A stretch of 20,000 nucleotides of DNA, from the NCBI RefSeq assembly GCF_004010195.1, contig NC_057751.1, positions 8,659,879 through 8,679,878 of the forward strand, written 5' to 3'. Positions 1,584 to 20,000 of this stretch are shown piece after piece. This DNA comes from Chiloscyllium plagiosum (Eukaryota). Each line of letters begins with the position of its first letter. The first letter of the stretch is position 1. The position numbers were made by a program, and so were the translations under genes. The notes beneath the pieces are model-generated. The model did no database searches, was not told the DNA's origin, and saw nothing but the letters and a program-made list of their open reading frames with translations.

Positions 1584-2681
1584 GGGTGAAGGGGAGGGGG
1601 GGTTGCTGCTGGCGGAGGGTGGGGAGGGGGGGGTGACTTGAGAAGTTGCTCCAACAGAGACAGAGGAGGGCAGGGAAAGGGAGGGAAGAGGAGACGAGAG
1701 GGGAGGAGAGAGCAGAGGAGACGAGGAGAGGGACGGGGGGGGGGGTCGGGGAGGAGAGACTGCGCTCGGACATGGGGGTCCTCCCGGAGAACAGGAGCGG
1801 CTCGGTGCTGGCGCTGAACGGTTCTGCTCGGTCCCCTCCCAGCCCGAGCCGGGCCATCGCCCTGGGTCTGACGCTGGGCTCCTTCATCCTGTTCGCCCTG
1901 CTGGGCAATGTGCTGGTGGTCCTGTCGGTGGTCTGCCACCGGCCCCTGCAGACGGTCACCAACTACTTCACGGTGAACCTGGCGGTCGCGGACCTGCTGC
2001 TGAGCTGCAGCGTGTTGCCCCTGTCCGCCTGGCTCGAGGTGCAGGGCCAGTGGCCGCTCGGCCGGCTCCTCTGTGATATCTGGGCGGCCCTGGACGTCCT
2101 CTGCTCCACCGCCTCCATCCTCAGCCTGTGCGTCATCTCCATCGAGCGGTACATCGGGGTGAGTTACCCGCTGCGACACCCGACCTTGGTGACCCAGGGG
2201 AGGGCTCTCTTCACCCTCCTGGGAGTCTGGAGCCTGGCCCTGGTCATCTCGGTGGGCCCCCTGATGGGCTGGAAGGAGCCGCCGCCCCCTGACCACACCG
2301 TGTGCCAAGTGACCGAGGAGCCCGGCTACGTGCTCTTCTCAGCCCTGGGCTCCTTCTACGCGCCGCTGGCCGTCATCCTGGTGATGTACTGCCGGGTCTA
2401 CATGGTGGCCAGGCGGGAAACCAGGAGCCTGGAGGAGGGCAGGAAGAGGGAGACGGGGGGCCGGGTAACGCTGCGCATCCACCGGCCGGAGAGGAGGGCG
2501 GACGGGCTGGACCAGGGTCAGGGTCAGGGTCAGCCCGGTGGCCGGGGCTCCCAGCTGAAGACTCAGTTCTCAGTCCTGCTCTTCAAGTTCACCAAGCAGA
2601 AGAAAGCGGCCAAGACCCTGGGCATCGTGGTCGGGGGTTTCATTCTCTGCTGGCTCCCGTTTTTCGTGGTCCTGCCCTTGG
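1584..2681. promoter_or_regulatory. GC/CpG-rich island over the proximal 5' region and exon 1, with G-tract cluster at 1584-1633 and purine-rich tract to about 1760
   Basis: GC and CpG density are visibly high compared with the AT-rich, CpG-poor intron and exon 2. Multiple runs of 3 or more G occur (gggtgaaggggagggggggtt...gggtggggagggggggg). Confidence 0.55.
1772..2681 (+). CDS. adra1a: Alpha-1A adrenergic receptor-like GPCR, coding exon 1 (N-terminus to TM6)
   Basis: ATG at 1772 in a strong Kozak context (gacATGg) with an in-frame TGA upstream at 1634. Translation [10 protein letters not shown]...GNVLVVLSV...NLAVADLL...[16 protein letters not shown]...[10 protein letters not shown]...[15 protein letters not shown]...VTLRIH...[12 protein letters not shown]...CWLPFF matches alpha-1 adrenoceptor motifs as I recall them. 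It has N-glycosylation sequons NRS and NGS and ends at donor G|GTAAGA in phase 1, the conserved alpha-1 intron position at the end of TM6. Confidence 0.93.
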
Positions 2682-2788
2682 GTAAGAAACCATTCCATTG
2701 CACTCTGACCTTCCAATGTTTCACTTGTGACAATGGTGCGGGAAAAGTTGCCTCTCTCGGAGTCTTGGACTTTGCCAGGGTTGGTGGG

Positions 2789-3288
2789 NNNNNNNNNNNN
2801 NNNNNNNNNNNNNNNNNNNNNNNNNNNNNNNNNNNNNNNNNNNNNNNNNNNNNNNNNNNNNNNNNNNNNNNNNNNNNNNNNNNNNNNNNNNNNNNNNNNN
2901 NNNNNNNNNNNNNNNNNNNNNNNNNNNNNNNNNNNNNNNNNNNNNNNNNNNNNNNNNNNNNNNNNNNNNNNNNNNNNNNNNNNNNNNNNNNNNNNNNNNN
3001 NNNNNNNNNNNNNNNNNNNNNNNNNNNNNNNNNNNNNNNNNNNNNNNNNNNNNNNNNNNNNNNNNNNNNNNNNNNNNNNNNNNNNNNNNNNNNNNNNNNN
3101 NNNNNNNNNNNNNNNNNNNNNNNNNNNNNNNNNNNNNNNNNNNNNNNNNNNNNNNNNNNNNNNNNNNNNNNNNNNNNNNNNNNNNNNNNNNNNNNNNNNN
3201 NNNNNNNNNNNNNNNNNNNNNNNNNNNNNNNNNNNNNNNNNNNNNNNNNNNNNNNNNNNNNNNNNNNNNNNNNNNNNNNNNNNNNNNN
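2789..3288. other. Assembly gap (500 N)
   Basis: Run of N. Confidence 0.99.
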
Positions 3289-3339
3289 AAGATGATGGTT
3301 GATGATGTGTTTCACACTCCACATTCTCATCCACACCAG

Positions 3340-3610
3340 ATAAATACTCTTCAGAGGAATCAAAGGTTAAGATAATCAGACAGTTAAATAGGGAACATTT
3401 TTCCTAGGTGGTGATGGCGAGCATGAGAGGACATTGCTTTCAATGGAAGGGTGGTAGATACCGGACACGTCAGAGGTAGTTTCTTTACTCAGAATAGTAG
3501 AGGCTTGGAATGCATTGCCTGCAACAGACTCGCCAACATGAAGGGCGTTTAAATAGTCATTGGATAAACCTATGGATGAAAATGGAATAGTGGAGCAGAT
3601 ATAGGCTTCA
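3340..3610 (+). mobile_element. Degenerate CR1 LINE 3' end
   Basis: atgagaggacattgcttt...ttctttactcaga...gcttggaatgcattgcctgca...gcgtttaaatagtcattggataa parallels the RGH / FFTQR / WNALP / FK..LD tail of the CR1 copy at 416-660. Confidence 0.7.
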
Positions 3611-3621
3611 GATTATGTTGC

Positions 3622-3833
3622 GAAAGAGAAAATGAGGTCTGCAGATGCTGGAGATCAGAGATGGAAATGTGTTGCTGGAAAAGCGCAGCAGGTCAGGCAG
3701 CATCTAGGGAACAGGAGAATTGACGTTTCTGGCATTAGCCCTTCTTCAGGAGGGCTAATGCCCGAAACGTCGATTCTCCTGTTCCCTAGATGCTGCCTGA
3801 CCTGCTGCGCTTTTCCAGCAACACATTTCCATC
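3622..3833 (-). mobile_element. Short non-autonomous element with inverted 5' duplication (hairpin, 85-bp arms) and 14-bp target-site duplication; Penelope pLTR-like
   Basis: Arms 3658-3742 and 3751-3835 are reverse complements with 2 mismatches around an 8-nt loop. The direct repeat tcagattatgttgc lies at 3608-3621 and 3834-3847. The minus strand carries CTGAAGA-A-GGGC-TAAT-GCCA-GAAAC-GTC. Confidence 0.8.
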
Positions 3834-3949
3834 TCAGATTATGTTGCACTGACCTGTAGAACCAGAGAGCTGATAATAGATAAACCTCTGAAATGCAAAT
3901 ATTCAATTAGACTGCCTCTTCTACCTTCTGAGGCACAATTTCAAAGTTC

Positions 3950-4330
3950 CTCAATCCTCAAAAAACAAAATCTCTTCATCTCGATCCCCAAAGGACTTTT
4001 TTAAAAAAATTAGGAAATGCTGTTATAAGTGACCCCTACTTCTGGATTTCTTATCTACTTCCACCAAGGCATTTCTCATTCTTTTGAACTCCAAAAGAAG
4101 CAAGTCCATCTGTCCAACCTGTCCTCCTGAGACCACCCACTCATCCTGGGAATCAATCAACCAAACCTTCAGTGCATTTCCATCCTCTGTTAAATAAGGA
4201 ATCCAAAAACTACACACACTTATTACAATCTTGTCTCGCCAATGCCTTACTAACTGAGACATAAAAATTAAGTTTAAGCTCATTCCAAATGACAAACAGT
4301 ATCCCATGAGCCCTCTTGATCAGGTGCCCT
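3950..4330 (-). mobile_element. Highly degenerate CR1 LINE fragment
   Basis: Minus-strand ORF 4023-4307 retains SFWIPYLTEDGNAL and LLEFKRMRNALVEVDK, decayed versions of the CR1 motifs QFWSPYL.KD..ALE and SLE.RR.RGDLIEVYK. Confidence 0.6.
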
Positions 4331-4769
4331 ACCTACACTCCACATTATGGTATTTGTGGGTCAGATGTCACAGTTTAGATTCCACTCAAAGTTTCCAGGC
4401 ACTATTCACATGTTTATGTAACACATCAAACTAAAGATACAACTTTATATTACAATCTTCAACTTGAAGGCCAATTATTTCCATCTCCTGACTTCATCAC
4501 AAATTTTCTTCAACTTCCCTACAGGATGTTCCTTAACCCCAAATCCAACTGAAATTTTCACAAAAACCAAATGTTACTGAATTGCACCAAACAGTGCTCT
4601 GTTTGAATCACATTAAAATGTTTTTACAATGTGGAGAAGATATCACAACCATTAGATCAATCATTTCAAGCAGCTGCCAAATCCTAAATCATTTATTAAA
4701 CCTGCAAACTGATGACTTGATCAAAACAAGGAGTCAAATGTTACCATTTTATTTGTAAAGGATCTGTTA

Positions 4770-4835
4770 GTATTGTGGGACATTTTACTGCATTAAAAAG
4801 GTGCTGCACAAATGCAACTTTTCCTGTTGTTGTTA
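4770..4835 (+). repeat. Possible L2/SINE 3' tail remnant
   Basis: gggacattttactgcattaaaaaggtgctgcacaaatgcaac...tgttgttgtt resembles the reverse complement of 13126-13150 and recalled L2-type 3' tails ending in (tgt)n. Confidence 0.35.
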
Positions 4836-5839
4836 TTCATGATGGCTATTTTTTATTAAACATTAGAATGAATTCAAGCCATGGGGATGAAAGGGGATTA
4901 ATTGTTTTTTTGTCATGAGCCTTGATTGTACTCATTACAGAATGGCACTTTCTTCCTTGCATGGTGATAAAAAATGAAGAGGGGGTGGGTGGGGAGAGGG
5001 AGATCATCATTCAGATTGCATTATGACAAATGTTTTTGTTGGGCAACCAATTCAGGTTTCAAGATGAAATGCACGCCATATTATTTGAGATGGTATTATT
5101 TTAAATAACTTAAATTTTTCATTAAATTCAGCAAGAAACAAATTTGATCAACCCTTCCGACAATCAACAGAATACCATCCACTTTGTGGAAATGGTGTAA
5201 TTATTCAGCCCTTGTGTGCTCCAGCGATTCTCTGTGCATTTAGGACACCTGACTCTGAATTCAAAGCTTCTGTTTGCAAGGCAACAAAACAGGTTACATG
5301 TTATGCCAACAAATCTTCCCTTCTCCATTTACTCCACATCCTTTCATTTATGGTGCTCTAACACCTGTGCCTTTCTTAGTCTCAATTTCTCTTCTTCAAA
5401 AAAAAACACATCTTTTCAAATGAAAAAATTCTTTGAGTCTTCAACAATAAAAAGGGGCTGGTTCAGTATCTTTGAATGCTGAAAATATTATTCAAGTGCA
5501 CCAGAATTGAAGGCTTGATGCCATTTTTGCCAGTCAGTTTGAAGATTAGTGAAGTATATGAAAATGAGAGATGTGGAGACCAATCAGCCCACTGCTCCCA
5601 CTCCCCCCAGTCATGGCTGCCTCCTATTGAGAGCATGAAACAGGCAAGCACATGATTATTTCTGTTTCCATGGCTCGTTTCTACTGGACCAGATTGCTAG
5701 CCTGTCACGAGGGGCCCCACAGCTTGAGAGGCGTAATTCTGCCTCAAGTTTAGCAAGACACATTCTGCCACTCATGTACTGGAAAGATTTGTAATTCATA
5801 ATCAGTCAATTTTGACATGCAAGAAATGAATCTTTCTTG

Positions 5840-5892
5840 GGTGGAACCTGATCCCAAAGCCTCACAGTAGAGGCAAAGATGCTACCCACAGC
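5840..5892 (-). repeat. Possible decayed tRNA-derived SINE head
   Basis: The minus strand ctgtgggtagcatctttgcctct...gggatcaggttccaccc has A-box-like and B-box-like spacing; heavily degenerate. Confidence 0.3.
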
Positions 5893-6174
5893 AGGGCAAT
5901 ACCCCCCCCCCCCCCAATCGCCATTGGTAACAGCTCCTCAATAATTACTGGAGTGTCAGTATACCTTCACATGGTGCGAAATTACATTTCACAGGTTGGC
6001 AGCTCCTTTGATAAACTTCTCAAATTGTTTGCACTAGTTTGAAATGACACCCTTTGTCTGACTGTCACGGTTCAACATTAAGTCTGTGTTTACCATTTCA
6101 TCATGATCTTAAATGCTCAAGTCACGTTTTAAGTCTTCCGTTTTGTATATTTTGCCACAGAAGTGAATGCAACC

Positions 6175-7138
6175 AAATTCATTTCAAAGGGTTAAAATTC
6201 AAGAACAGAGATGTACTGTTGAGGCTGCATGATACTCTGGCCAGGCGTCTTTTGGAATATTTAAAGAAGTTCTGGGACCACATCTATCGGGGGATGGGCT
6301 GCTCTTTGGGAGGATCCAGAGGCAGGTCGTGGGAGTGCTGTAAAAAGGACTTGGACAGGTTAGCAGCATGGGCAAAGAAGTGGCAAATGGAATACAATTT
6401 GCAAAAGTGTGAGGCCATGCACTGTAGTAGGATGAAGAGAGGCATAGACCACTTTAGAAACAGGGAAAGGCTTCAGAAATCTAAAGGACAAAGGGAATTG
6501 TGAGTCCCAGTTCAGGATTCTCTGAAGGTTAACATGCAGATTCAGGTAGCAGATCAGAAGGCATAAGCAATGTTAGCTGGAGGACTAGAATATAACAGCA
6601 GAGATGTTTTTCTAAGGCTGTACAAGGCTCTGGTCAGGCCGCAATTGGAACATTCTGAGAAAGTTTGGACCCTGGTCTATGGAAGGATGTGCTGGAGTTG
6701 GAGGAGGTCCAGAGTACCCCACGGATGAATAGCTTGTCACATGAGGAGCAGTTGAGGACTCTGGGTCTATGCTGGATGCAACTTAGAAGGATGAGGAGGG
6801 ATCTCATTGAAACTTACAGAATACTGAAGCACGTGAATATACTGTAAGTGTCAAAGATCCTTCCATTATTAGGAGAGGACAGCCTCAGCATGATTCAATG
6901 ACCTTGTGCGACTGGGGGAGGAGGAATTTCTTCAGCCAAAGGGTGGTGAATCTGTGGAACTCATTGCCGCAGAGATCTGTGGAGGCCTAGTCATCGAGCA
7001 TATTTAAGACAGAGATAGACAGGTTCTCAACCAGAAAGGGAATCAAGTGTGATAAGGAGAAGGAAGGAGAATGGCGTTGAGAAATGTGTCAGCCATGTTC
7101 AAATGAAGGAGAAGACTTGCTTCTATAGCATATGGTCT
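6175..7138 (+). mobile_element. Composite CR1 LINE fragments (short piece 6175-~6325, then a longer RT-to-3'-tail piece)
   Basis: GLKFKNRDVLLRLHDTLARRLLEY..FW is followed by KDLDRLAAWAKKWQMEYNLQKCE, a second 'DV..RLYKALVRPQLE' segment (6600-6650), RRMRRDLIETYRILK, and FFSQRVVNLWNSLP (6927-6969); many stops and frameshifts. Confidence 0.85.
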
Positions 7139-8355
7139 AAGTTGAAAACACAAGATTGGTGATGATCAGTTATAATTTGCTCACAGCTATTCTTGGTGTT
7201 TCTGCTCGGAACAAAGTTTTGCAGCAATGTTTTAAAAATTGAAGAAGCAAAAATCACCAGACCCAGTGCATTGGCAAGGATTTGGTCCCTTTTAAACAGT
7301 TACTTGGACTGAAGGGAAAACAGGAGCCTTTCAAACAGGAAGGTCACAAGGGTGATGAGGTTTCTCAAAGAGAAAGCACTATGAACCTTACTGGAAATGA
7401 AGAGTTAAGAACCACAGGAGACTGTCCAGAAGAGAACACAGCCTGTCTGGAAACACTCATGCTGTTCCTATGGTATCATTGAGAACTGTGCCCAGTCACA
7501 TATCATGAGTGTTTTCGGTGTCCATTTCGGTGTGCTACAAAGCAGCTGCATCATTTGGATCAAGCCACATTTCACAATTGTCCTTTTAGTTCTGCTTTGG
7601 AAAGACTAAAGAACTAAAAGGGATCAGAATATTCCTGTTAAGGCATAAGAGTGTGTTACAGCTTAAACCTCTGAACTTGAACAATCATGGAAGTACATGC
7701 AAGATCCACACTGGCTTACAGCAGAGTTTTGTCTCTGGAACTGAACAGTTGTCAACAACAACCTGTAACTCCTTGTGTCAAGGTTTTCAATCATTTCTTT
7801 CCCAAGTTTGTAATTTCATGTACTATCTTCCAGCTCTCTGTACAGAGGATCAGGAGGAGAGAAACAGGGTGCTTTCCCTCAGGTAGGTTTCAGTGTGACA
7901 AGGACACTGCAGGCATTCCCTCTCCATGTACTTCAAAAGACAAAACGTGAAATGGATTTTTTCTGGAAAACGAAATACCTGTAACTCAACTGTTGGTCAG
8001 TCTCAGAACTTTCCAACTGGACAACTGATGTTGTCAAAACATAGATTCTGTGAACAGACACAGCATGAACAATTGAAAGTTCTCCTTCTCCTCAAGAATG
8101 AAACAAGACAAAATATTCTTCCTCATATTGTTTCTCCTCCTATACTGTACAATACTGTCAAAAAAAACCAACCTGATGAGGAAATGTGCCGAATTAATAA
8201 AGGCAAAGAGACATGATAATGACTGGTTATTCTCAGCATCATCTAGTAGTGTCCTCAACTCATCCATTTACTTATTTTCCATTCAGATTAAGAGCAGGCT
8301 CCCACATCCAAGTTTTACAATGGGACAGAGATCAAGTAGACTTTAAGTAGAGCGC

Positions 8356-8454
8356 CATTCCTGATGAAGGGCATTTGCCCGAAATGTCGATTTTCCTGCT
8401 CCTCGGATGTTGCCTGACTGCTGTGCTTTTCCAGCACCACTCTAATCTAAACTC
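8356..8454 (+). mobile_element. Single copy of the same short hammerhead-like element with an 11-bp target duplication
   Basis: ctgatgaagggcatttgcccgaaatgtcgattttcctgctcctcggatgttgcctgactgctgtgcttttccagcaccac aligns with 3751-3823. Flanks are aagtagagcgc (8345-8355) and aagtatagcgc (8455-8465). Confidence 0.78.
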
Positions 8455-9295
8455 AAGTATAGCGCATGTAAGTGAAAATATTACTGAGAGATATGGACAG
8501 GTTCGTGATCAGGTCAACTGTGTGTTAGCCAAGTCGAGTAATCACCAATTACAGTCAAAGCAGAGAAACAAAAACATGAATAAATTAAACATTAATCAAG
8601 ATTTTTATTAAAGGGAAAACTTAGCTTTGAACTTAATTCAGGAACACTTGTGCTGCAATAACCTATATGGAGTGCAACCATTTGAAGAGATTAATGACTG
8701 ATGATAAAACACGTTGGTTTATAAGGTTGGTCCAGCAAATCTGGAGGTTATTGCGGATGGCTTGCTAGATTTATATAACAACAAATAAGGTGCGACAGGT
8801 TTGTGTAATTAGTTTCTGGCGTGTCTATGTCTGTTTTGGTCTCAATAACTCCAGGGCCATTCGTGATGCATGTTGTCAATGTGTGAAGTCTGCTTTCACA
8901 ATTTTCCAATATCTTCAAAGCATTTTCTCACAGCTTTTGTCAGTTCTTTGAAATTCTAGATATCCCAAACATAGTAGCTAGAGTTGGGCTGTAAAGTGTA
9001 CATGCTTGTCAAGTTACTTGTCTTGCACTTGTCGGGGCAGAATGTCAACAGCATCAAATTCTAATGGGAACACCAATTTATACAGTCTGAGATAAAAGTG
9101 CAGATAGTGTACAAGTTAATGCTGACTGGGTGTAGTATTGACATGCAGAATGTATCAGGCAAATATTATTCCCTGGCCATTTTAAATGTTCCACCAGCCA
9201 TGCTGATCTTGATCGATTGAGGTTTTGATATGGTAAATTCCTTGAGGTTTCTTAAGCTTATGCAGGATTTGAATGTTAGGATAAAAGCGCATGAC

Positions 9296-9340
9296 TTTAG
9301 AGTCATACAGCACCAAAGAAGCCCTTCAGTCCATCTAGTA
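9296..9340 (-). repeat. Tiny CR1 3' tail fragment
   Basis: tagagtcatacagcacc...gcccttcagtccatc is reverse-complement-similar to the CR1 tail at 722-769 (gatggaagggtct...tgctgtatatctct). Confidence 0.5.
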
Positions 9341-9507
9341 TGTGCTGATCTATCTACACTTATCCCACTTGTTTCAGTGCTTATAACTGACATTTTCACC
9401 CGAGTATCAATTGACACATTTGTGCATCTCTTGCATGCAACATTTTAAACAAAATCTAACAGTTCAGTTTTGTTAAATTAGTAAAGCCACAAAGTGCGAA
9501 AACGTGA

Positions 9508-9668
9508 ACAACAGTTTATGTTTCTATAATATTCAACATTGTAAGACACTGATCATAAGACACTTCACAGGATTATTGCAAAGCAAATAGGATCTCAAGA
9601 CACATGACAGACATCAGATGCCAGAAGGTCAGATGACCCAAAGATTCATCAAAACCCTTCATTTCAAG
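9508..9668 (-). repeat. Possible old L2-type LINE 3' fragment
   Basis: acaacagtttatgtttctata...acacttcacaggattattgcaaagcaaa...gatgacccaaag resembles recalled L2 3' ends; by eye only. Confidence 0.3.
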
Positions 9669-9671
9669 GTT

Positions 9672-12500
9672 CATCAGAACATCGAACATTGCAGCACAGT
9701 ACAGGCCCTTCGGCCCTCGATGTTGTGCCGCCCTGTGCTGAAGCCCATCTCACCTACACTATTCCATTCTCGTCTATATACCTATCCAATGACCATTTAA
9801 ATGCCTGTAAAGTTGGCAAGTCTACAACTGTTGCAGGCAGTGCATTCCGCTCCCCTACTACACTGAGTAAACAAACTACCTCTGATATCTATCCTCTATC
9901 AACCACCCCTCAATTTGAAGCTATGGCCCCTCGTGCTTGCCGTCACCATCCGAGGAAAAAGGGTCTCACTGTCCACTCAATCTCACCCTCTGATTATCTT
10001 GTATGTCTCAACTATGTCACCTCTCAACCTTCTTCCCTCTAATGAAAACAGCCTCAAGTTCCTCAACCTTTCCTCATAAGACCTTCCCTCTGTACCAGGC
10101 ATCATCCTCGTGAATCTCCTCTGAACACTTTCCAAAGCTTTCACATCCTTCCTATAATGCGGTGACCAGAATTACACGCAATACTCCAAGTGCGGCCACA
10201 CCAGAGTTTTGTACAGATGCCGCTTGACCTCATGGTTCCAAAACTCGATCCCTCTACTAATAAAAGCTGGCATACTGGATGCCTTCTTAACAGCCCTATC
10301 AACTTGGTTGGCCATTTTCAGATTTCTATGCACATGGACACCAAGATCTCTCTGCTCATCTACACTGCCAAGAATCTTACCATTAGCCCAGTACTCTCCA
10401 TTCACTCCTTCCAAAGTGAATCACCTCACACTTTTCTACATTAAACTCCGTATGCCACCTCTCAGCCCAGCTCTGCAGCTTATTTATATCCCGCTGTAAC
10501 CTACAACATCCTTCGGCAGTATCCACAACTTCATCCACCTTAGTGTCATCTGCAAATTTACTAACCCATTCTTCTACGCCCTCATCCAGGTAGTTTATAA
10601 AAATGACAAACAGCACTGGACCCAAAACAGATCCTTGTGGTACCCCACTAGTAACTGAACTCCAGAATGAACATTTCCAATCAACTACCATCTTCTGTTT
10701 TCTTTCAGCTCACCAATTTCTGATCCAAACCACTAAATCGACCTCAATCCTATGACTCCGTATTTTGTGCAGGAGCCTACCATGGGGAGCCTACCATGGG
10801 GTATGCCTTACTGAAATCCATATCTACCACATCAACTGCTTTACCCGCATCCACCTGTTTGATCATCTTCTCAAACAACTCCAGAAAGTTTGTGATGCAT
10901 GCCCTACCCTTTACAAAACTGTGTTGACTATCTCTAACCAACTTATTCCTATCAAGGTGATTATAAACCCTACCTCTTCTAACATTTTCCAATACTTTAC
11001 CCACAACCAAAGGAAGGCTCACTGGTCTGTAACTACCATGGTTGTTCTACTCACCTTCTTGAACAAGGGAACAACATTTGCGATCCTCTAGTCTTCTGGC
11101 GCTCTTCCTGTAGGCAATGACAACAAAAGAGCAAAGCCAAAGGCTCAGCAATCTCCTTCCTGGCTTCCCAGAGAATCCTACATAAATCCCCTTGGCCGGT
11201 TAGGATTTATTCTACTTTCACACTTTCCAGAATTTCTAACACCACCTCCTTGTGAACCTGAATCCAATCTATCACCTACCTACCTCACCTACGTCAAAAT
11301 CTCGCACCTAGCTGGGTTCAGTACCAAATTGAATATGGGCTCGCCCCTTGTTGGCCTGTCTACATACTGCGTCAGTAAACCCTCCTGTATACAATGGACA
11401 AAAACTGTCCCATCTAAAGTACGTATTCCCAGTCAATTTTTGGAAGTTGAAATCCCCCATAACAACTACCCTGTTGCTCTCGCTCCCACTGAAAATAATC
11501 TTTCCTTTCCTCTAAATGTCTGGGCCTATTCAGAGGCCTGCAGAAAACTCCCAACAGGTTGACCTCTCCTTTGTTGTTTCTCATCTCAGCCCATACTACC
11601 TCAATTGACGACTCCTCAAACGTCCTTTCTGCAGCCATAAGACCACGTTTCTCTGTTCTGACTGAAACATCTAAATCCCGGAACCTGAAACAACAACTAT
11701 TCCTGTCACTGCTCTATCCGTGTCTCTCAAATAGACACAACATCAAAATCCCAGGTACCGACCCATGATGCAAGTTCACCCAGCTCATTACAGATGTTCC
11801 TGGCATTCAATTGACACACTTCAAACCAGCGTTTTGCTCGCCGGTGTCCTTTTGCAACCCTGAAACCTCATTTCAGGCCTCCCTACTCTCAACCTCCTCT
11901 ATACTTGAACTACAATTTAGTTTCCCATCCCCCTGCTGAATTAGTTTAAACCCATCCAAAGAATATTAGCAAATTTTCACCCCTAGGATACTGGTGCCCC
12001 TCTGGTTCAGGTGAAGACCATCCTGTTTGTAGAGGTCCCACCTACCCCAGAAAGAGCCCCAATTATCCAAGAATCCAAAACTCTCCCTCGCTGCACCATC
12101 CCTGTGGCCACGTGCTCAACTCCTCTCTCCCCCTATTCCTCCTCTCACAAGCACGTGGCACTTGCAACAAACTAGAGGTAACAACTCTTTGTCCTCGCTC
12201 AAAGCTTCCTCCCTTTCTCCCTGAATTTCTGCCTGAATTCCCCATCTCTCTTCCTACCTATGTCAATGGTGCCGATGTGGACCACAACTTGGGGCTGCTC
12301 CCCCTCCCTTGCATGGATTCCGAGAACACGATCGGAGATCTATCACGAACCCTGGCACCTAGAAGGCAACACACAAACTGTAAGTCTCTCTCAATCCCAC
12401 AGAACCTCCTGTCTGTACCCCTAACTATGGAGTCCATAATGACTAATGCTCTGCTCCTCTTCTCCCTTCCCTTCTGAGCAACGGGGACAGACTCTGTGCT
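9672..12500 (-). mobile_element. Long, internally deleted CR1 LINE (ORF1 esterase, APE endonuclease, RT, 3' tail)
   Basis: Minus-strand pieces occur in the correct order: ALVIMDSIVRGTDRRFCG...CCLLGARVRD (SGNH/GDSL esterase ORF1), VVWAEMRNNKGEVNLLGVFCRP (APE), DSQHSFVKGRACITNFLELFE...VDVVDMDFSKA, SGVPQGSVLGPVLFVIFINYLD...SKFADDTK (RT), YKTLVWPHLEYCV, then a 3' tail near 9672-9730. Confidence 0.93.
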
Positions 12501-12584
12501 AGAGATCTTGGAAAGAACCAAAAAAAAAGTGGCAAAGAAATGTAGGAAAAATAATCCACAGCTGGAAGCAATGAAAACAATTGC

Positions 12585-12585
<1 letters not shown>

Positions 12586-12616
<31 letters not shown>

Positions 12617-12762
12617 NNNNNNNNNNNNNNNNNNNNNNNNNNNNNNNNNNNNNNNNNNNNNNNNNNNNNNNNNNNNNNNAGAGAGAGACACACAGACAGA
12701 CAAAGAGAGAGAGAGAGCGAGAGAGAGACACAGAGAGAGAGAGAGAGAGAAAGAGACAGAGA
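12586..12762. repeat. (GA)n microsatellite interrupted by a 63-N gap (12617-12679)
   Basis: Direct reading: gagaga... on both sides of the gap, with some ca/gc interruptions. Confidence 0.95.
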
Positions 12763-13124
12763 AATTGTAATTGGGAATGCACAAGAGGCCACAATGAGAG
12801 AGAGGTGCATGTATCACAGTAATTTATGAGGTTGAAAAGTAACTCAGAAAGGAGGTGGGAGCAAAGCCAGGGAGGCATATAAAATAACTGGCGAAAATTG
12901 TAAAATTTTGACGGGCATGGAAGTAAATGCAGACCAAAAGAAAACATGAGATAAAGTCACCAACAGCCTGGTTAAATCACAGACTGTTGTCAGAAGCTTG
13001 GATCAGAATTGTGAGTGGGAACTGAAATAATGCCCACACACTCTTCACAGAAGATTGAGACAATTCATGCAGAGGTCATTTCACCTAAAACTGAATTCTG
13101 ATAAATGGGATGCTGCAGCATCAA

Positions 13125-13285
13125 AACTTGAATTTGTATAGCACCTTGAACATAAGTTGTCTGTACAAGTGGCACTCAGTCTTGGAAATAAATTTAAACT
13201 TTATTTGAAATTAAACATAAATGAGGATGTGAAGTTGCAGCAACGGAGAGTTTTACAAAGGGAATTACAAAGCTTCAGTCCTGTC
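13125..13285 (-). repeat. Possible old L2-type LINE 3' fragment
   Basis: aacttgaatttgtatagcaccttgaaca...ggagagtttt...agggaattacaaagctt resembles recalled L2 3' ends and the reverse complement of 4770-4820. Confidence 0.35.
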
Positions 13286-13311
13286 GAGTGTAAGGCATGG
13301 TTATAAATTTT

Positions 13312-13963
13312 TCAGATGAGAATATAGGAGAGGCATGGTCACAAATTTTGCAGATGACACCAAACTTAGTAGTGCAGTGGACACCGAAGGAGGTTATGTA
13401 AGAGGACAATGGGATCTTGATCAACCATGCCTATGGGTCAAGGAATGGCAGATGGACTTTAATTCAGTGACATCTGAGGTGTGGCATTTTGGTCAGACAA
13501 AGCTGGGTAGGACTTACACTGTTAATGGTAGTGTTATCAGAGAGACCGGAGGGTGGGGGGGGGGGGGGAGCTGCAGGTACATAGTTCCTTGAAAGTGGCA
13601 TCGCATGTAGACAGTGTGGTGAAGAATGCATTTGGCACCCTTGCCTTAGTCAGTCAAAGCACTGAATAAAGAAGTTGGGAGATCATGTTACAGCATTACA
13701 AAACATTGCAAAGGTCAGATTTGGAGTACTACATACGATTGTGGTTGCCCTGCTATAGGAAGGATGTTATTAAATTGTCAAGGATGTAGAAGAGATTTAC
13801 CAGGATGTTACTGGGATTAGAGGGTTTGAGTTACAAGGGGAGACTGGATAGGCTGGTATGCCTTTCTCCGGAGCACAGGGTTTATAAAATCATCAGAGGC
13901 ATGGATCAGGTGAACAGCCAAGGTCTTTTCTCAAGAGGAGGGATATCCAAAACTGGAGGGCAT
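13312..13963 (+). mobile_element. CR1 LINE RT C-terminal fragment
   Basis: MVTNFADDTKL...WDLDQ..LWVKEWQMDFN..EVWHFG followed by DNA collinear with the copy at 1-490 up to the 'TRGH' region (aactggagggcat). Confidence 0.88.
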
Positions 13964-14680
13964 GGAGAAACAGATATCCGATAAACACAATCCACCAGCT
14001 CCTCAGGAACACTCCCAAACAGGCAGACACAATGCAACCAAAAACTACAGCCATATTACCTTACATCCAAGATGCATCAGAAACGACTCCCAGACTAGTC
14101 AGACCACTTGGCATCATGGTAGCCCACAAATCTATCCACACTTAACAGCGACTAATGAAATTAAAGGATGCATTAGAAACAACCAGCAAAACTAACACTT
14201 ACAAGATACCATGCAAGAACAGTAAAAAAAAACACTACAATGGACAAACAAGCAGGAAACTTGCCACCAGGATACACAAACACCAACTGGCCACCGAAAG
14301 ACATGACCCACTATCATTAGTTTCTACACATACAAAGAAGGACACCACTTTGACTGGGAGAACACACACATCCTCAGACAGGCAAAACAAAGCCATGCAT
14401 GAGAATTCTTAGAGGCATGACATTCTAACCAGAACTCCATCAATAAACTCATCGATTTCGACCCCATCTACCTCCTCTTGAAAAAAGGAGCCGGATGTGA
14501 CATCACACGGGTTAAGAAAACAAGACCTATAAATAGAAAGGGAGGACATGCCACCAGCACTTCACCGGAGACTCTCATCGATGATTTTACCCTGTATAGT
14601 GATGAAAACAGCTCTTCTAACTCAGTGAGCGAACTTACATACTTATCAACCTGAGCTACAAATCCTCTCAAAAATCACTA
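13964..14680 (+). mobile_element. Penelope-like element 3' fragment (GIY-YIG endonuclease and pLTR), frameshifted
   Basis: Frames give LPYIQDASETTPRLVRPLGIMVAHK, TNTYKIPCKN...HYNGQTSRKLATRIHKHQLATERHDPLS (xYxIPC...YxGQT.R.L..R..EH GIY-YIG pattern) and HHFDWENTHIL...EFLEA. The downstream non-coding end contains a decayed hammerhead-like motif at 14578-14609. Confidence 0.85.
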
Positions 14681-15285
14681 ACTTTCTATGACTATCTAAT
14701 TGCCTGAAAAGTGCCTACATTTTGATGTCTCCCTTCAATTGAGGCAAATGGAGTTTTGATTACTCATATCCTTCTTGTTTTCTATAACTCTGATTAGTCC
14801 TTTTTCTATTTCAGGGAGATCGAATTGTGACTTTGCATTCTGCAAGAACCACAGTACAGTTGATTATAACATTGTACGAGTGCTTTCATTCTGCTTGACA
14901 GCAAACTGCACAATGTACTGAAATTATGTGCCTCTTGCATCCATCACAGAACAAAGGAGTTTCAGGCTCATAATAACCGATCTTGTGCAATACAACAAAA
15001 ATGACAAAACACCTTTGATTTTAAGATGTTCTTTGGAAGCATTCACATAAAAGCTGCTTCATTTAGGACCGTTCAGTTGCCAAGTCAGTAGTCTTTATTG
15101 ATCCATGTTTATCTATAACTACTCAGATAATGTGCTACTCGAGTGTTTCGGTCAAATAGTACAAATGCATGCGAGGGAAAGCTCAATACTTGAGAGAGTA
15201 CGGAACAGATACATTGGTAGATGAAGTGAAGTACGGATAGGAGGAACTTAATATGATACATGAATACTGCTACTGATCTGTTGGG

Positions 15286-15545
15286 CTGAATGGTCTTGTT
15301 TGATATGCCTCTGAGCATTGGGCCAGTTCTTTACTCACGTATAGAATTATAGGCTACATTTATCACAATTGTAATGTCATTTGTCATGACATACAAGGAG
15401 AAAGTGAGGTCTGCAGATGCTGGAGATCAGAGCCTGAATGGTCTTGTTTGATATGCCTCTGAGCATTGGGCCAGTTCTTTACTCACGTATAGAATTATAG
15501 GCTACATTTATCACAATTGTGATGTCATTTGTCATGACATACAAG
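15286..15545. repeat. 112-bp direct repeat pair (15286-15397, 15434-15545) flanking a 36-bp insert from the short element tail
   Basis: The copies differ at one base (15373 a vs 15521 g). Insert positions 15398-15432 match 3626-3660 at 34 of 35 nt. Confidence 0.9.
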
Positions 15546-15957
15546 ACCATTTACGAAATAGCCTGATCACCTCGATTATAAACAGGGGCTACTCTTATCT
15601 TGAAGAGGAGACAGAAGTATGGAATGGGGTTACCAACCTTGAACATAAATGTCTTGAAGGAATGAGACATCTGAATCATTCCATCACTTAAAGCGCATGT
15701 TCCTGGCCTTGACATACAAAAAGAAATATCCATTTTACAATTTCTGCTGGGAGTCTACTTTTATAACCTATTAATCAAGAATCAAAAAGTACACTGAACT
15801 GTACTTGTCTGGAGCCTTCCACACCAAAGCTCTGATCACAATGACAACTCCTGATCCTGGCCTGACATTGTCTCCATGAAGACAGTGGAGATTCTTCTTT
15901 CAGTTCACACATTTCAAAGTTAAGTGTCTCACATTCCATCTCACATCTATGTCACAC

Positions 15958-16002
15958 TTATATATTTATATATATATAAAACTCAATTTATATATATTTT
16001 TT
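15958..16002. repeat. Short imperfect (TA)n / AT-rich low-complexity tract
   Basis: ttatatatttatatatatataaaactcaatttatatatatttttt. Confidence 0.6.
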
Positions 16003-17903
16003 AAAAGCAGTGGTACCCTTTTCATCTAAGTGAAATCACATACTCTGAAATCACATTAATCGTGACAGGCAACAAGAAAAAATGTTTTCATCTGTTTGTC
16101 CAAAGAACCTTGAGATCATAATGATTTACTTATCAAACACACATTGGAGAAATAGTCTCCAATGGTAAGAGAGTGCCAGTGGTTCAAGTGCCTGCTGTCT
16201 ATTTAAGATGAATAGCAAGATCAGATAAATGCACATAAAATCAATTGTATTCCAAGCTTCATAGGATCTTGTATTATCTTACTTATGCAATACCTCTGAA
16301 CACAAAGTTGCTGTTTGAACTTGGCAATCACAGACAGAAAAGTTTTAACATCAACCCGTTGCTTCTCCTGCTGTGTTTTTCCTTCCTCCAGCATTTGAAA
16401 TCTCCCCTGCTACAGACTCATCTATTTGCAGAGTGGATGAAGGTACTCTTAAAAAAAAACCAGCATTCAACTGAACTCACCGTGAAAACTTTCAATGACA
16501 ACACAAGTGGAAGACGACAACAAAATGACCTGTGAAGCCACACTTTTTTTTTCAAATTTCATCTGCCCAAATATGACCTCTTCCACCCCACCCAGCGACT
16601 GAGAGTTCAAAACCCAAGTTATATCATTCACTGAGACACTAGTCACAGCAGGTCTTCTGTGAAGCCCAACACCAAACCTTCCTGTTTCTCCATTACATGT
16701 GCCAGTGGCCCCCTGAATTGAAACCCAACTTTCCATGACTGTCTTTAGCAGCAATGCCACTTCAAAATGATGCGAGAAACCTGCAGACATCCCACCTCAC
16801 AGAAGCAGATCACAGCCAAGCAATGGCTGAAGGTGTTGCCAGTTTGAAGGATGGTCTGTTTAGCCAAAGTTCCAGACTAATACATCAGGGACCAAACGTT
16901 TTAGCAGGGTATGTGCCTTTTACCTGGACAATTCCCTGAAGCTGTTGTTCCTACCCAGTCGGGCCTCGAGGTAACTCCAGCCATATGGATGACGGTGAGG
17001 TCTGTGTTCCCCAGCAGTGATAAAAACAGAGCATAAGCATAGCATGACGCGTATCAACCTATCCGAAGAACAAATGCACTTAAAAAGCACCAAGGCAAGG
17101 AAATCAAAGTAGATTGTTTGCACTTCAAATGTTCAATGCAATACTGTGTAACATTTTGCTTCTGCAAACTATGTTTCATGTAGAACATTCCAAGAGCAAC
17201 TTGCTATTTCTGGTCAGTCTTGTTTATTTACCTGTGGAACAACAAATGGGGATCACTGCCCAGCACCACTCAAGTGCTGTTGGATGATCTTGATTTGGAG
17301 GACTGATACTCTATTTCAGCCCAGTCCACATTTTCTCGCACAGGAAGCCTCAAAAGGAAGATAAATAAGCTGGACCCACAATCATGCAATTGTCATGTTT
17401 CCCGATTCAAACTGCCAACAAAAGGCATTTAACTTGACAGAGACATTGTGGTCCTCCAATAGCTCAAACTCCAAGCTTTACTGCTCGTGTTAGAAATTTG
17501 TTATCATTTTGCACTTGAGCACAAATCCACTCCTCTCACACGGAGCATGAGTTCGGAGGATAATACTTTTATGATTGGTGCGGTGCACAGAGGACTTCAA
17601 TTACCTTCCCACAAGTGCCCCAGCTAAATCCTACTTTTGTATTCATAAATATCAACCTTAGTGGACCACTGTTTGCAGTTTGTGGAGGATTTCGACTAGC
17701 ACCTTATTAAAGTTAGCTTCAATTTAAACACAAGCTTTCACTTACAAATCCATTATTGGGGATCGTGTCATGTAATTTCTTCATTGTCATTTTCAAACTG
17801 GACTAAATTAATCCTCCTCCAATGAATCATTGATTTAAATTCAACCTGATGTCAGTGCAAGTACACACCTTAAATCATGTTTTTTTTTCTTTTACTCCCA
17901 CAG

Positions 17904-18376
17904 GTTCTTTCTTCCCGAAGTATAAAGCCCCAGAGACCATCTTCAAAATAACATTTTGGCTTGGCTATTTCAACAGCTGCATTAACCCCATCATATACCC
18001 AGCTTCAAACAAAGAATTTAGGAAGGCATTTCAAAGCATCTTGAAGGGTCAATGCTGTCACAGGAAAAAGGCATCACTTCACCCTCCCCTGAGCTCCAGC
18101 CACAGTGCAGAGGGGCAAAAGCACGTAGTACGCATTCCTGTCGGGTCCAGGGAGACCTTCAAGATCTCCAAGTCTGATCGAGATTGTGAATGGAAATTAT
18201 TTTCCACCCAGCCAGATCATGGAACAGAGAACAAGTGCTGGGATCTCAATGGGAGAGGGAGAACGATTCTGTGCTGCTGTTGCACCGATGCCAATGCACC
18301 TCATGGTGAGACACACCATGCACCGGGTTTGAAACCTCAAGCTTATTCGGTTGGTGATTACGGTGATCCTGTGTGA
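17904..18376 (+). CDS. adra1a: Alpha-1A adrenergic receptor-like GPCR, coding exon 2 (ECL3, TM7, C-terminal tail, stop)
   Basis: Polypyrimidine tract plus CAG acceptor (ttttttttcttttactcccacag|GT) gives G+GT = Gly in frame with exon 1. Translation [32 protein letters not shown]...EFRKAF...QCC...[25 protein letters not shown]...CCCC...GDPV*. The [14 protein letters not shown] block is characteristic of the ADRA1A C-tail. The joined CDS is 910+473=1383 nt, 460 aa. Confidence 0.93.
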
Positions 18377-18817: not shown

Positions 18818-19545
18818 CACTTTTCAAATGAAACCAAGTGCAGCAAACTGTACAGGTACAAAGTCCAGGAAAACTCCTTTTCAGCGATTCATACATAGAA
18901 GGTAAAAAAAAGTGCCATGTGCATTAAGTCCAAGGCAATGTGAACATTTTCTGAGACAAGATAGTGAACAAAGGTGCTTCAATGGATGATATTTTTACTT
19001 CACATGCAAGAGCTGGAAAGATTTTACCTTTGACTTCATGACAACTCTTGATTCAAAGTGACAGTTCTATAATCCTTTCTTGGAATGAAATGGCTTTATA
19101 AAATGGCACTCAAGAGAGACAACAATGACATAACTCTGAGTTTTTTGGGGAAATAAGGCGGCTCTGTCTTCATCAAACTCAAACTGGTTTTGCAAAATGA
19201 CAAACATTTTGGCAGTAACAGTACACTGAACCCGCTTAGACAAGCGAAACATGCTTCTGAAAGTTTTAAGAAACCAAATTTGTAAAAGACATACAAGCTC
19301 ATTTTCTTCTCTCTGGATTTTGGGTCGCATTGCCCGGAGTCAACTTGTTCACTGCTGTGTTCAGCAAATCCCTTCAGAGTGTTTTCCTCTCCATGGTTTG
19401 ATCTCCTCAGACTAGGTTCTACCTGCTGATCTGTCCTCAGCTTTGCAGCATGCCTTGGTAGGTTTGAACTATTAAGCTAAACAGATTCCAAGTTTAGAGG
19501 TTTATTGTCTTGGCATAGTTGGATGATGTTGTCTTTGAAAAGCAT

Positions 19546-20000
19546 GAGAGAGTAAGAGAGAGTAAGAGAGAGTAAGAGAGAGAGAAAGAGAGAGAAAGAG
19601 AGTAAGAGAGAGTAAGAGAGAGTAAGAGAGAGTAAGAGAGAGTAAGAGAGAGTAAGAGAGAGTAAGAGAGAGTAAGAGAGAGTAAGAGAGAGTAAGAGAG
19701 AGTAAGAGAGAGTAAGAGAGAGTAAGAGAGAGTAAGAGAGAGTAAGAGAGAGTAAGAGAGAGTAAGAGAGAGTAAGAGAGAGTAAGAGAGAGTAAGAGAG
19801 AGTAAGAGAGAGTAAGAGAGAGTAAGAGAGAGTAAGAGAGAGTAAGAGAGAGTAAGAGAGAGTAAGAGAGAGTAAGAGAGAGTAAGAGAGAGTAAGAGAG
19901 AGTAAGAGAGAGTAAGAGAGAGTAAGAGAGAGTAAGAGAGAGTAAGAGAGAGTAAGAGAGAGTAAGAGAGAGTAAGAGAGAGAGAAAGAGAGAGAAAGAG
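19546..20000. repeat. 10-bp tandem array (AGTAAGAGAG)n, about 45 units, running off the window
   Basis: Perfect units from 19551, with variant units AGAGAAAGAG at 19581, 19591, 19981 and 19991. Confidence 0.97.

Follow-up and report, generated by a model that had tools for sequence, protein, structure and literature searches.

A head-to-head, hammerhead-bearing insertion in an adrenergic receptor intron of Chiloscyllium plagiosum is likely the end of a Penelope-like retrotransposon

The closest described counterparts of the locus presented here are the EN+ Penelope-like elements (PLEs). In rotifers, these form units with an inverted pLTR, a 31-bp tail and target-site duplications (TSDs) of 8-10 bp, the joints of which were explained by self-priming on an antisense template (Arkhipova et al. 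2013, PMC3846280). The general layout, as outlined by Craig et al. (2021, PMC8557442), includes an inverted 5'-truncated copy and a tail of 30-40 bp. The minimal hammerhead ribozyme was defined by Cervera and De la Pena (2014, PMC4209133), in whose account the monomer is inactive and the dimer weakly active. For PAc, a Poseidon element of Anolis, both target strands are cut and extended, reverse transcription begins at two internal sites bounding the tail, the ribozyme requires protein and the main template is uncut RNA (Frangieh et al. 2024, PMC11167929). Tandem retrozymes have been tied to pLTRs (bioRxiv 10.64898/2026.07.22.740005). Transcription does not always start directly at the ribozyme: in Drosophila virilis, where the promoter has no TATA box, the start is located 46 bp ahead of a 75-bp intron (PMC2377424).

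The window, a stretch of 20,000 nucleotides of C. plagiosum contig NC_057751.1, contains at 3608-3847 a TSD-flanked, head-to-head pair of hammerhead-bearing modules (Table 1). The unit is likely the pLTR end of a Penelope-like retrotransposon, copied by the reverse transcriptase of that element. Its full length is 214 bp, without any ORF inside. The arms, each of 85 bp, differ at 3721 and 3730 only, and the loop between them reads TCTTCAGG. On the minus strand, the monomer (3751-3622) runs from the ribozyme core through a spacer into the tail. The plus-strand hairpin RNA has a predicted folding energy of -186.5 kcal/mol (z = -23.9). The flanking repeat is the longest exact match at its position, and the control window pairs to which it was compared had identical spacing. 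Its right copy shares 2 nt with the right arm, and target and element letters are alike there at five of six places. The geometry of the original prediction (arms with two mismatches, an 8-nt loop, a 36-nt unpaired tail and an exact 14-bp repeat) is thus confirmed by alignment, folding and the control pairs.

Reads or contigs of four of the 24 listed sequencing runs were aligned to 3300-4300 at 85% likeness: X1 and X2, which carry the same species label, X12, from a second species, and the RNA run X21. The contigs aligned numbered 37,807 (X1), 39,788 (X2) and 31,042 (X12); these totals also include a second repeat at ~3400-3605. Summed depth, which is not a copy number, reached 10^5-10^7 over 3606-3843, against mostly 10-100 on the unique flank. 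The family of the unit is very high-copy. Loose ends pile up at 3626 in all four runs (710, 507 and 719 contigs; 837 reads), and past the tail end the aligned sequences diverge into unrelated DNA after about five shared letters. The tail end itself (3622-3631, minus strand) is a pyrimidine run, and the loose-end consensus of the family closes with AG, resembling a 3' splice site. Among the joints listed, many contigs connect 3751 to 3789, 3793, 3797, 3805 or 3809, or to 3671, 3689 or 3703: the head-to-head inversion is family-wide, and the position of its joint is variable. From X21, of which about 2 in 100 were covered, 2,656 reads fell on the repeats and none on the unique flank, so that this run is uninformative on the locus itself. 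Nevertheless, 296 of its reads continue beyond 3751 into a common upstream sequence (agreement 0.59), and longer family members therefore exist. Given the varied joints and these reads, the unit is likely the terminal part of a longer element, each insertion of which would form its hairpin afresh. X21 displayed no pile of RNA ends, its library being unsuited to detecting cleavage.

Table 1. Coordinates of the hairpin unit, of its relatives and of the host gene in the window.
Feature	Position	Strand	Remarks
Target-site duplication, left	3608..3621	.	14 bp, exact repeat of 3834-3847; exact 14-mer in 0/594 control pairs
Putative PLE tail, 3' end of the copied RNA, on one arm only	3622..3657	-	36 nt, unpaired within the hairpin fold; fixed end across runs
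Left arm, body of the putative pLTR-end module, element sense on minus	3658..3742	-	Inverted-repeat alignment
Minimal type I hammerhead core	3722..3749	-	Extra A after A9, 4-bp stem II, palindromic ACGU
Loop and head-to-head joint	3743..3750	.	8 nt; 1-nt overlap at 3751
Right arm, inverted partial copy without CUGANGA box and without tail	3751..3835	+	
Target-site duplication, right	3834..3847	.	X1 and X12 contigs align from exactly 3834
Second family copy	8356..8454	+	Body only, intact CUGAUGA core, no tail
Third family copy	15398..15433	-	Tail only; 38-nt match at 94.7%
Host gene, alpha-1 adrenergic receptor	1772..18376	+	7tm_1 on both exons; best PDB match

From 3749 to 3722, the minus strand reads CUGAAGA-A-GGGC-UAAU-GCCA-GAAAC-GUC, a minimal hammerhead core in which the CUGANGA and GAAA boxes, the extra base between 9 and 10.1 and the palindromic 15.2-16.2 are all present. 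Like the min-HHRs of PLEs (PMC4209133), this core is of type I, with the same extra base, the same palindrome and no helix III. The pair G10.1-C11.1, common to those ribozymes and to the majority of the family, is absent from the copy in the unit. Both groups also occur mostly as solo copies, some of them on opposite strands 100-700 bp apart. Stem II (4 bp) and stem I (2-3 bp) are shorter than in the Schistosoma motifs described in the same study. The original prediction had proposed this minus-strand core, including the extra A and the palindromic ACGU, and its sequence stands; its placement of CUGAAGA in the left arm does not, as the box (3749-3743) lies inside the loop. The right arm, reported as lacking CUGANGA and otherwise keeping the core letters, does so, and its letters at 3721 and 3730 are those of the family majority. 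The two scans that had been proposed came out differently. A loose hammerhead pattern matched twice in the window, where 0.04 matches would be expected (two were reached by one of 200 shuffles), whereas Rfam, searched up to an E-value of 5, returned ten matches in the window, none of them to a hammerhead model and none at the gathering score. Six of the ten, from miRNA-hairpin models on the arms, were dismissed as chance.

The two differences between the arms fall exactly where G10.1-C11.1 and the first stem I pair break. Position 11.1 (3730) is an A in the core of the unit, which removes G10.1-C11.1, and with the pair at 3721 also lost, stem I retains no pairs. Both substitutions are private to the left arm and both positions are CpG sites; the majority letter accounts for 1.42 of 1.72 million of summed depth at 3730 (X1) and for 354 of 383 plus-mate reads at 3721 (X21). 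Moreover, the ribozyme strand is antisense to the host gene, the sense strand being without CUGANGA, and forcing the stem II fold within the hairpin costs 22.3 kcal/mol, with a fold probability that rounds to 0. As the closing pair of stem II and stem I are broken, the ribozyme of this unit is predicted to be unable to fold and to be inactive. The element had been described as ribozyme-bearing; in the sense of a working ribozyme, this is not supported, in view of the two private substitutions, the antisense position and the sequestration of the core in a duplex.

Concerning the age of the insertion, one contig each of X1 (record 8) and X12 (record 16) begins its alignment at the first base of the right TSD. 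The 45 letters directly before it do not fit the right arm, which is the pattern expected of an empty site. Judging from these alignments, the second species probably lacks the insertion and the first is probably polymorphic for it; the insertion is probably recent, in line with the young age that had been proposed. An X2 contig (record 22) that runs through the flank covers 23 letters of the right arm, fewer than the 31 that the tool requires. Should the empty allele be confirmed, the unit would be usable as a presence/absence marker. In itself it is of little consequence: it is one of very many stubs and most likely neutral.

The layout of the unit is already published (PMC3846280, PMC8557442). 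As in the EN+ PLE units described there, a tailed direct copy adjoins a shorter, 5'-truncated inverted copy head to head, and a tail is present at one end only; its 36 nt match the expected 30-40 bp, and the hammerhead motif lies within the pLTR-like module. The TSD is of comparable size and, as in such insertions, varies in length among the copies of the window (14, ~11 and 112 bp). The unit differs from the rotifer examples (PMC3846280) in its TSD, 14 bp against 8-10 bp, and in its ORF-less 214 bp. Likewise, PAc (PMC11167929) resembles it in an internal start of reverse transcription ~110-130 nt past the start of the ribozyme, in a tail between two fixed sites and in the use of uncut RNA as template. 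PAc belongs to a different sequence family, and inverted copies are left unexplained in the main text of that paper. The PLE layout, the tail, the TSD, the high copy number and a covarying ribozyme stem (below) all support the Penelope-type origin that had been suggested.

A possible course of the insertion starts with a GIY-YIG endonuclease, which, from what is known of the PLE family, would make staggered cuts in the target strands 14 bp apart. The fixed tail end and the work of Frangieh et al. (2024) suggest that the reverse transcriptase would then start inside the RNA, at the distal site, and copy tail and body, ~130 nt in all. The copy in the unit contains the whole ribozyme core and ends 2-3 nt upstream of it. 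A copied whole core implies a template RNA uncut by the ribozyme, and the end of the copy may correspond to the 5' end of the RNA, near the promoter. Synthesis of another copy would be primed by the opposite target end at the proximal start site, which coincides with the tail boundary, and head-to-head joining of the two cDNAs would follow. In the unit, the left arm departs from the family majority at the two CpG sites, which breaks the stem II closing pair and stem I.

Four other origins were weighed against that of a Penelope-like end. The original prediction favored a non-autonomous, ribozyme-bearing element mobilized by a Penelope reverse transcriptase, which is taken here as a dedicated element, similar to a retrozyme or a SINE, that would spread as a unit with an active ribozyme. 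The absence of ORFs, the fixed ends and the very high copy number would suit such an element, and non-LTR retrozymes, which like the unit are non-coding, of hammerhead type I and related to PLE pLTRs, are described as PLE derivatives, also in one cartilaginous fish (bioRxiv 10.64898/2026.07.22.740005). However, the defining trait of retrozymes in that preprint is a head-to-tail tandem array, whereas the unit is one isolated head-to-head pair flanked by a TSD, and the window holds three dispersed copies and no head-to-tail tandem hammerhead units. Copies start upstream of the core and not at the cut site, body-only and tail-only products are found in the same window, and both the differing inversion joints and the upstream extension shared by the 296 RNA reads point to the end of a longer element. 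A separate non-autonomous element is thus unlikely. A fold-back DNA transposon (MITE), suggested by the near-perfect long inverted repeat and the small size, is far less probable still, as the original prediction had already argued. The ends are not mutually inverted, the 36-nt tail is on one side only, the duplications in the window (14, ~11 and 112 bp) exclude a fixed TSD, non-palindromic copies exist, and a covarying ribozyme stem is present.

The hairpin or the ribozyme could also have been exapted to regulate the adrenergic receptor pre-mRNA. Folding predicts an 85-bp duplex (-186.5 kcal/mol) for the sense strand of the intron, and the unit is predicted to form dsRNA in the receptor pre-mRNA. 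On the other hand, the site is apparently empty both in one conspecific individual and in the second species, the CUGANGA box is missing from the sense strand and the splice sites are at least ~900 nt distant, which makes a regulatory role very improbable. A fold-back chimera of the assembly would be compatible with a 500-N gap ~320 bp upstream of the unit and with the fact that none of the contigs listed spans it. Such an artefact would hardly produce an exact TSD and two arm-specific differences; the X2 contig that enters the right arm (again, by fewer than 31 letters) and the recurrence of this layout in other assemblies speak against it too, leaving it with a minimal probability. The Penelope-like end remains the preferred origin.

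Related cores were sought outside the window. A 28-nt core pattern occurs at 23 loci of metagenome_contigs, apparently in DNA of host animals, and none of these resembles the family of the unit beyond the core. No copy of that family was found in genome_contigs, viral_contigs or metagenome_contigs, and no reverse transcriptase or endonuclease ORF was linked to its own sequence. The spacer motif had no matches in viral_contigs; its three matches in genome_contigs were rejected as chance, being located in GC-rich bacterial DNA with no likeness outside the motif. After removal of the duplicates L020, L021 and L023, stem I, which lies outside the search pattern, was tested for covariation over 21 distinct cores. 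It was paired in 82.5% of cells, with two-sided change in all three pairs. The observed values were reached in 0 of 500 shuffles for three measures and in 34 and 369 of 500 for two others, which are not extreme. The true register beats all slid controls; relatedness of the loci can inflate covariation.

At L001, a decayed GIY-YIG gene that includes a Cys-rich linker (Atlas 0.94; GIY-YIG on 20-51% of members) precedes the core by ~600 bp. A decayed CX2-5CxxC linker motif, a feature of the Neptune clade, precedes the GIY-YIG domain, with one Cys replaced. This endonuclease had no match in viral_contigs, and the L001 family is different from that of the unit, with only the 28-nt core in common. 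A TATA-like motif is present 34-38 nt upstream of the core in six of the 23 loci (L001, L002, L008, L017, L018 and L022); matches at -38 in L016 and L023 derive from the inverted arm and were left uncounted.

Fourteen distinct loci constitute one distant family, and the other six were excluded from the count of layouts. Ten of the fourteen copies start no more than 7 nt from the core, a pile-up partly forced by the core search. An inverted piece is present in seven of the fourteen, and five of these seven are bounded by a repeat of 12-19 bp. All five have one tailed end at +143 to +146 and one tail-less end at +89 to +93. L016 mirrors the layout of the unit, with an exact 15-bp repeat, an 89-bp arm and a tail, and in L003 both arms extend to the same 5' end. 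L010 (~3905-4115) carries an inverted tail and a tail-less body within a 13-bp repeat, the two having almost no sequence in common.

In L1 elements, twin priming takes place when both target ends prime on the RNA, resulting in an inversion inside the TSD; there is no overlap between the two halves, and the position of the second site varies. In the unit, by contrast, the second end has a fixed position, the tail boundary, and the arms usually overlap. A tentative reading, possible but rather doubtful as a whole, is that the stubs are complete records of integration: twin priming at a distal (tailed) and a proximal (tail-less) site, run-off 5' of the uncut ribozyme and head-to-head joining. This single rule would cover a tailed body with an inverted body (the unit, L003, L005, L015 and L016), an inverted tail with a body (L010), a body alone (8356-8454) and a tail alone with a 112-bp duplication (15398-15433). 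That two-armed insertions have a single tail each is suggestive of twin priming.

The second arm could instead have arisen, within the same PLE origin, by a snap-back, in which the first cDNA folds at its 3' end, copies itself and joins the target at the tail boundary; this is quite possible, if short of an even chance. At 3664/3829 and 3707/3786, both arms carry the same subfamily letters and not those of the family majority, hence one source sequence; the joint consists of an 8-nt loop with 1 nt of overlap. The identity of the arms and the short loop fit a snap-back equally well, and palindromes at joints were interpreted as self-priming in PMC3846280. A snap-back needs a separate cause for the stop at the tail boundary, though, and self-copying is unable to make L010, the two parts of which share almost nothing. 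It is also at odds with the arms of L003, which both reach the same 5' end, and with the PAc data (Frangieh et al. 2024, PMC11167929), where both strands are cut and extended and two start sites are used. The choice is therefore close to balanced, with a slight preference for twin priming, which accounts for the fixed tail-less end as well as for L010 and for the copies that consist of a body or a tail only. No twin-priming account of PLE inversions was found in the literature searched, most subscription papers lying outside its reach. If true, twin priming would replace the idea of antisense self-priming for PLE inversions, and tail-only insertions would be a source of local tandem duplications. 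In any case, the family is a large natural record of Penelope-like integration, with inverted copies, one tail and a retained uncut ribozyme.

The host gene has its best PDB match in the alpha-1A receptor (E 1.8e-114). Coding exon 1 (~1772-2681) is followed by a 15-kb intron (2682-17902) with GT/AG ends and by exon 2 (from 17903). All three family copies lie within this intron, where the splice site nearest to the unit is the donor, ~900 nt away; together they cover 349 of the 19,437 known bases, or 1.8% of the window. The left arm is 81% identical over 83 nt to the second copy (8359-8440), which has a probable 11-bp TSD with one mismatch (8345-8355 and 8455-8465). The tail-only copy sits between 112-bp direct repeats (15286-15397 and 15434-15545) that are 99% identical; these are either an unusually long target duplication or a tandem duplication caused by the element. 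Two subfamilies with different spacers have their core and tail in common (3660-3668, 8440-8454; loose ends at 3660, 3668 and 3825).

The insertion site of the unit lies within another repeat or at its end (3400-3607; depth up to 4 x 10^5); this repeat matches 9738-9885 in inverted orientation and is presumably LINE-3'-end-like. A decayed fragment of a second PLE family, which we take to be Poseidon-type, extends over ~13970-14660 on the plus strand. It includes a GIY-YIG endonuclease (Atlas 0.95; GIY-YIG on 13-35% of members), after which comes a degenerate hammerhead-like remnant near 14575-14612. Pfam recognized no family in four decayed fragments, this one and that of L001 included. The ORF list contains decayed LINE-like reverse transcriptase fragments on both strands (1-800, 6200-6700, 10100-11800 and 13300-13950), assumed to be of CR1/L2 type. 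ARAGORN found no tRNA genes in the window, a search that would miss decayed tRNA-like heads. A GA microsatellite (12586-12760) borders a 63-N gap, and a 10-bp GA-rich tandem array occupies 19545-20000, up to the end of the window. Over 3606-3843, the RNA run has 13 T>C places, against 4-5 in the three DNA runs, and 13 A>G places, against 9-13. The T>C excess, in reads that are multi-locus and from another individual, may reflect A-to-I editing of family transcripts.
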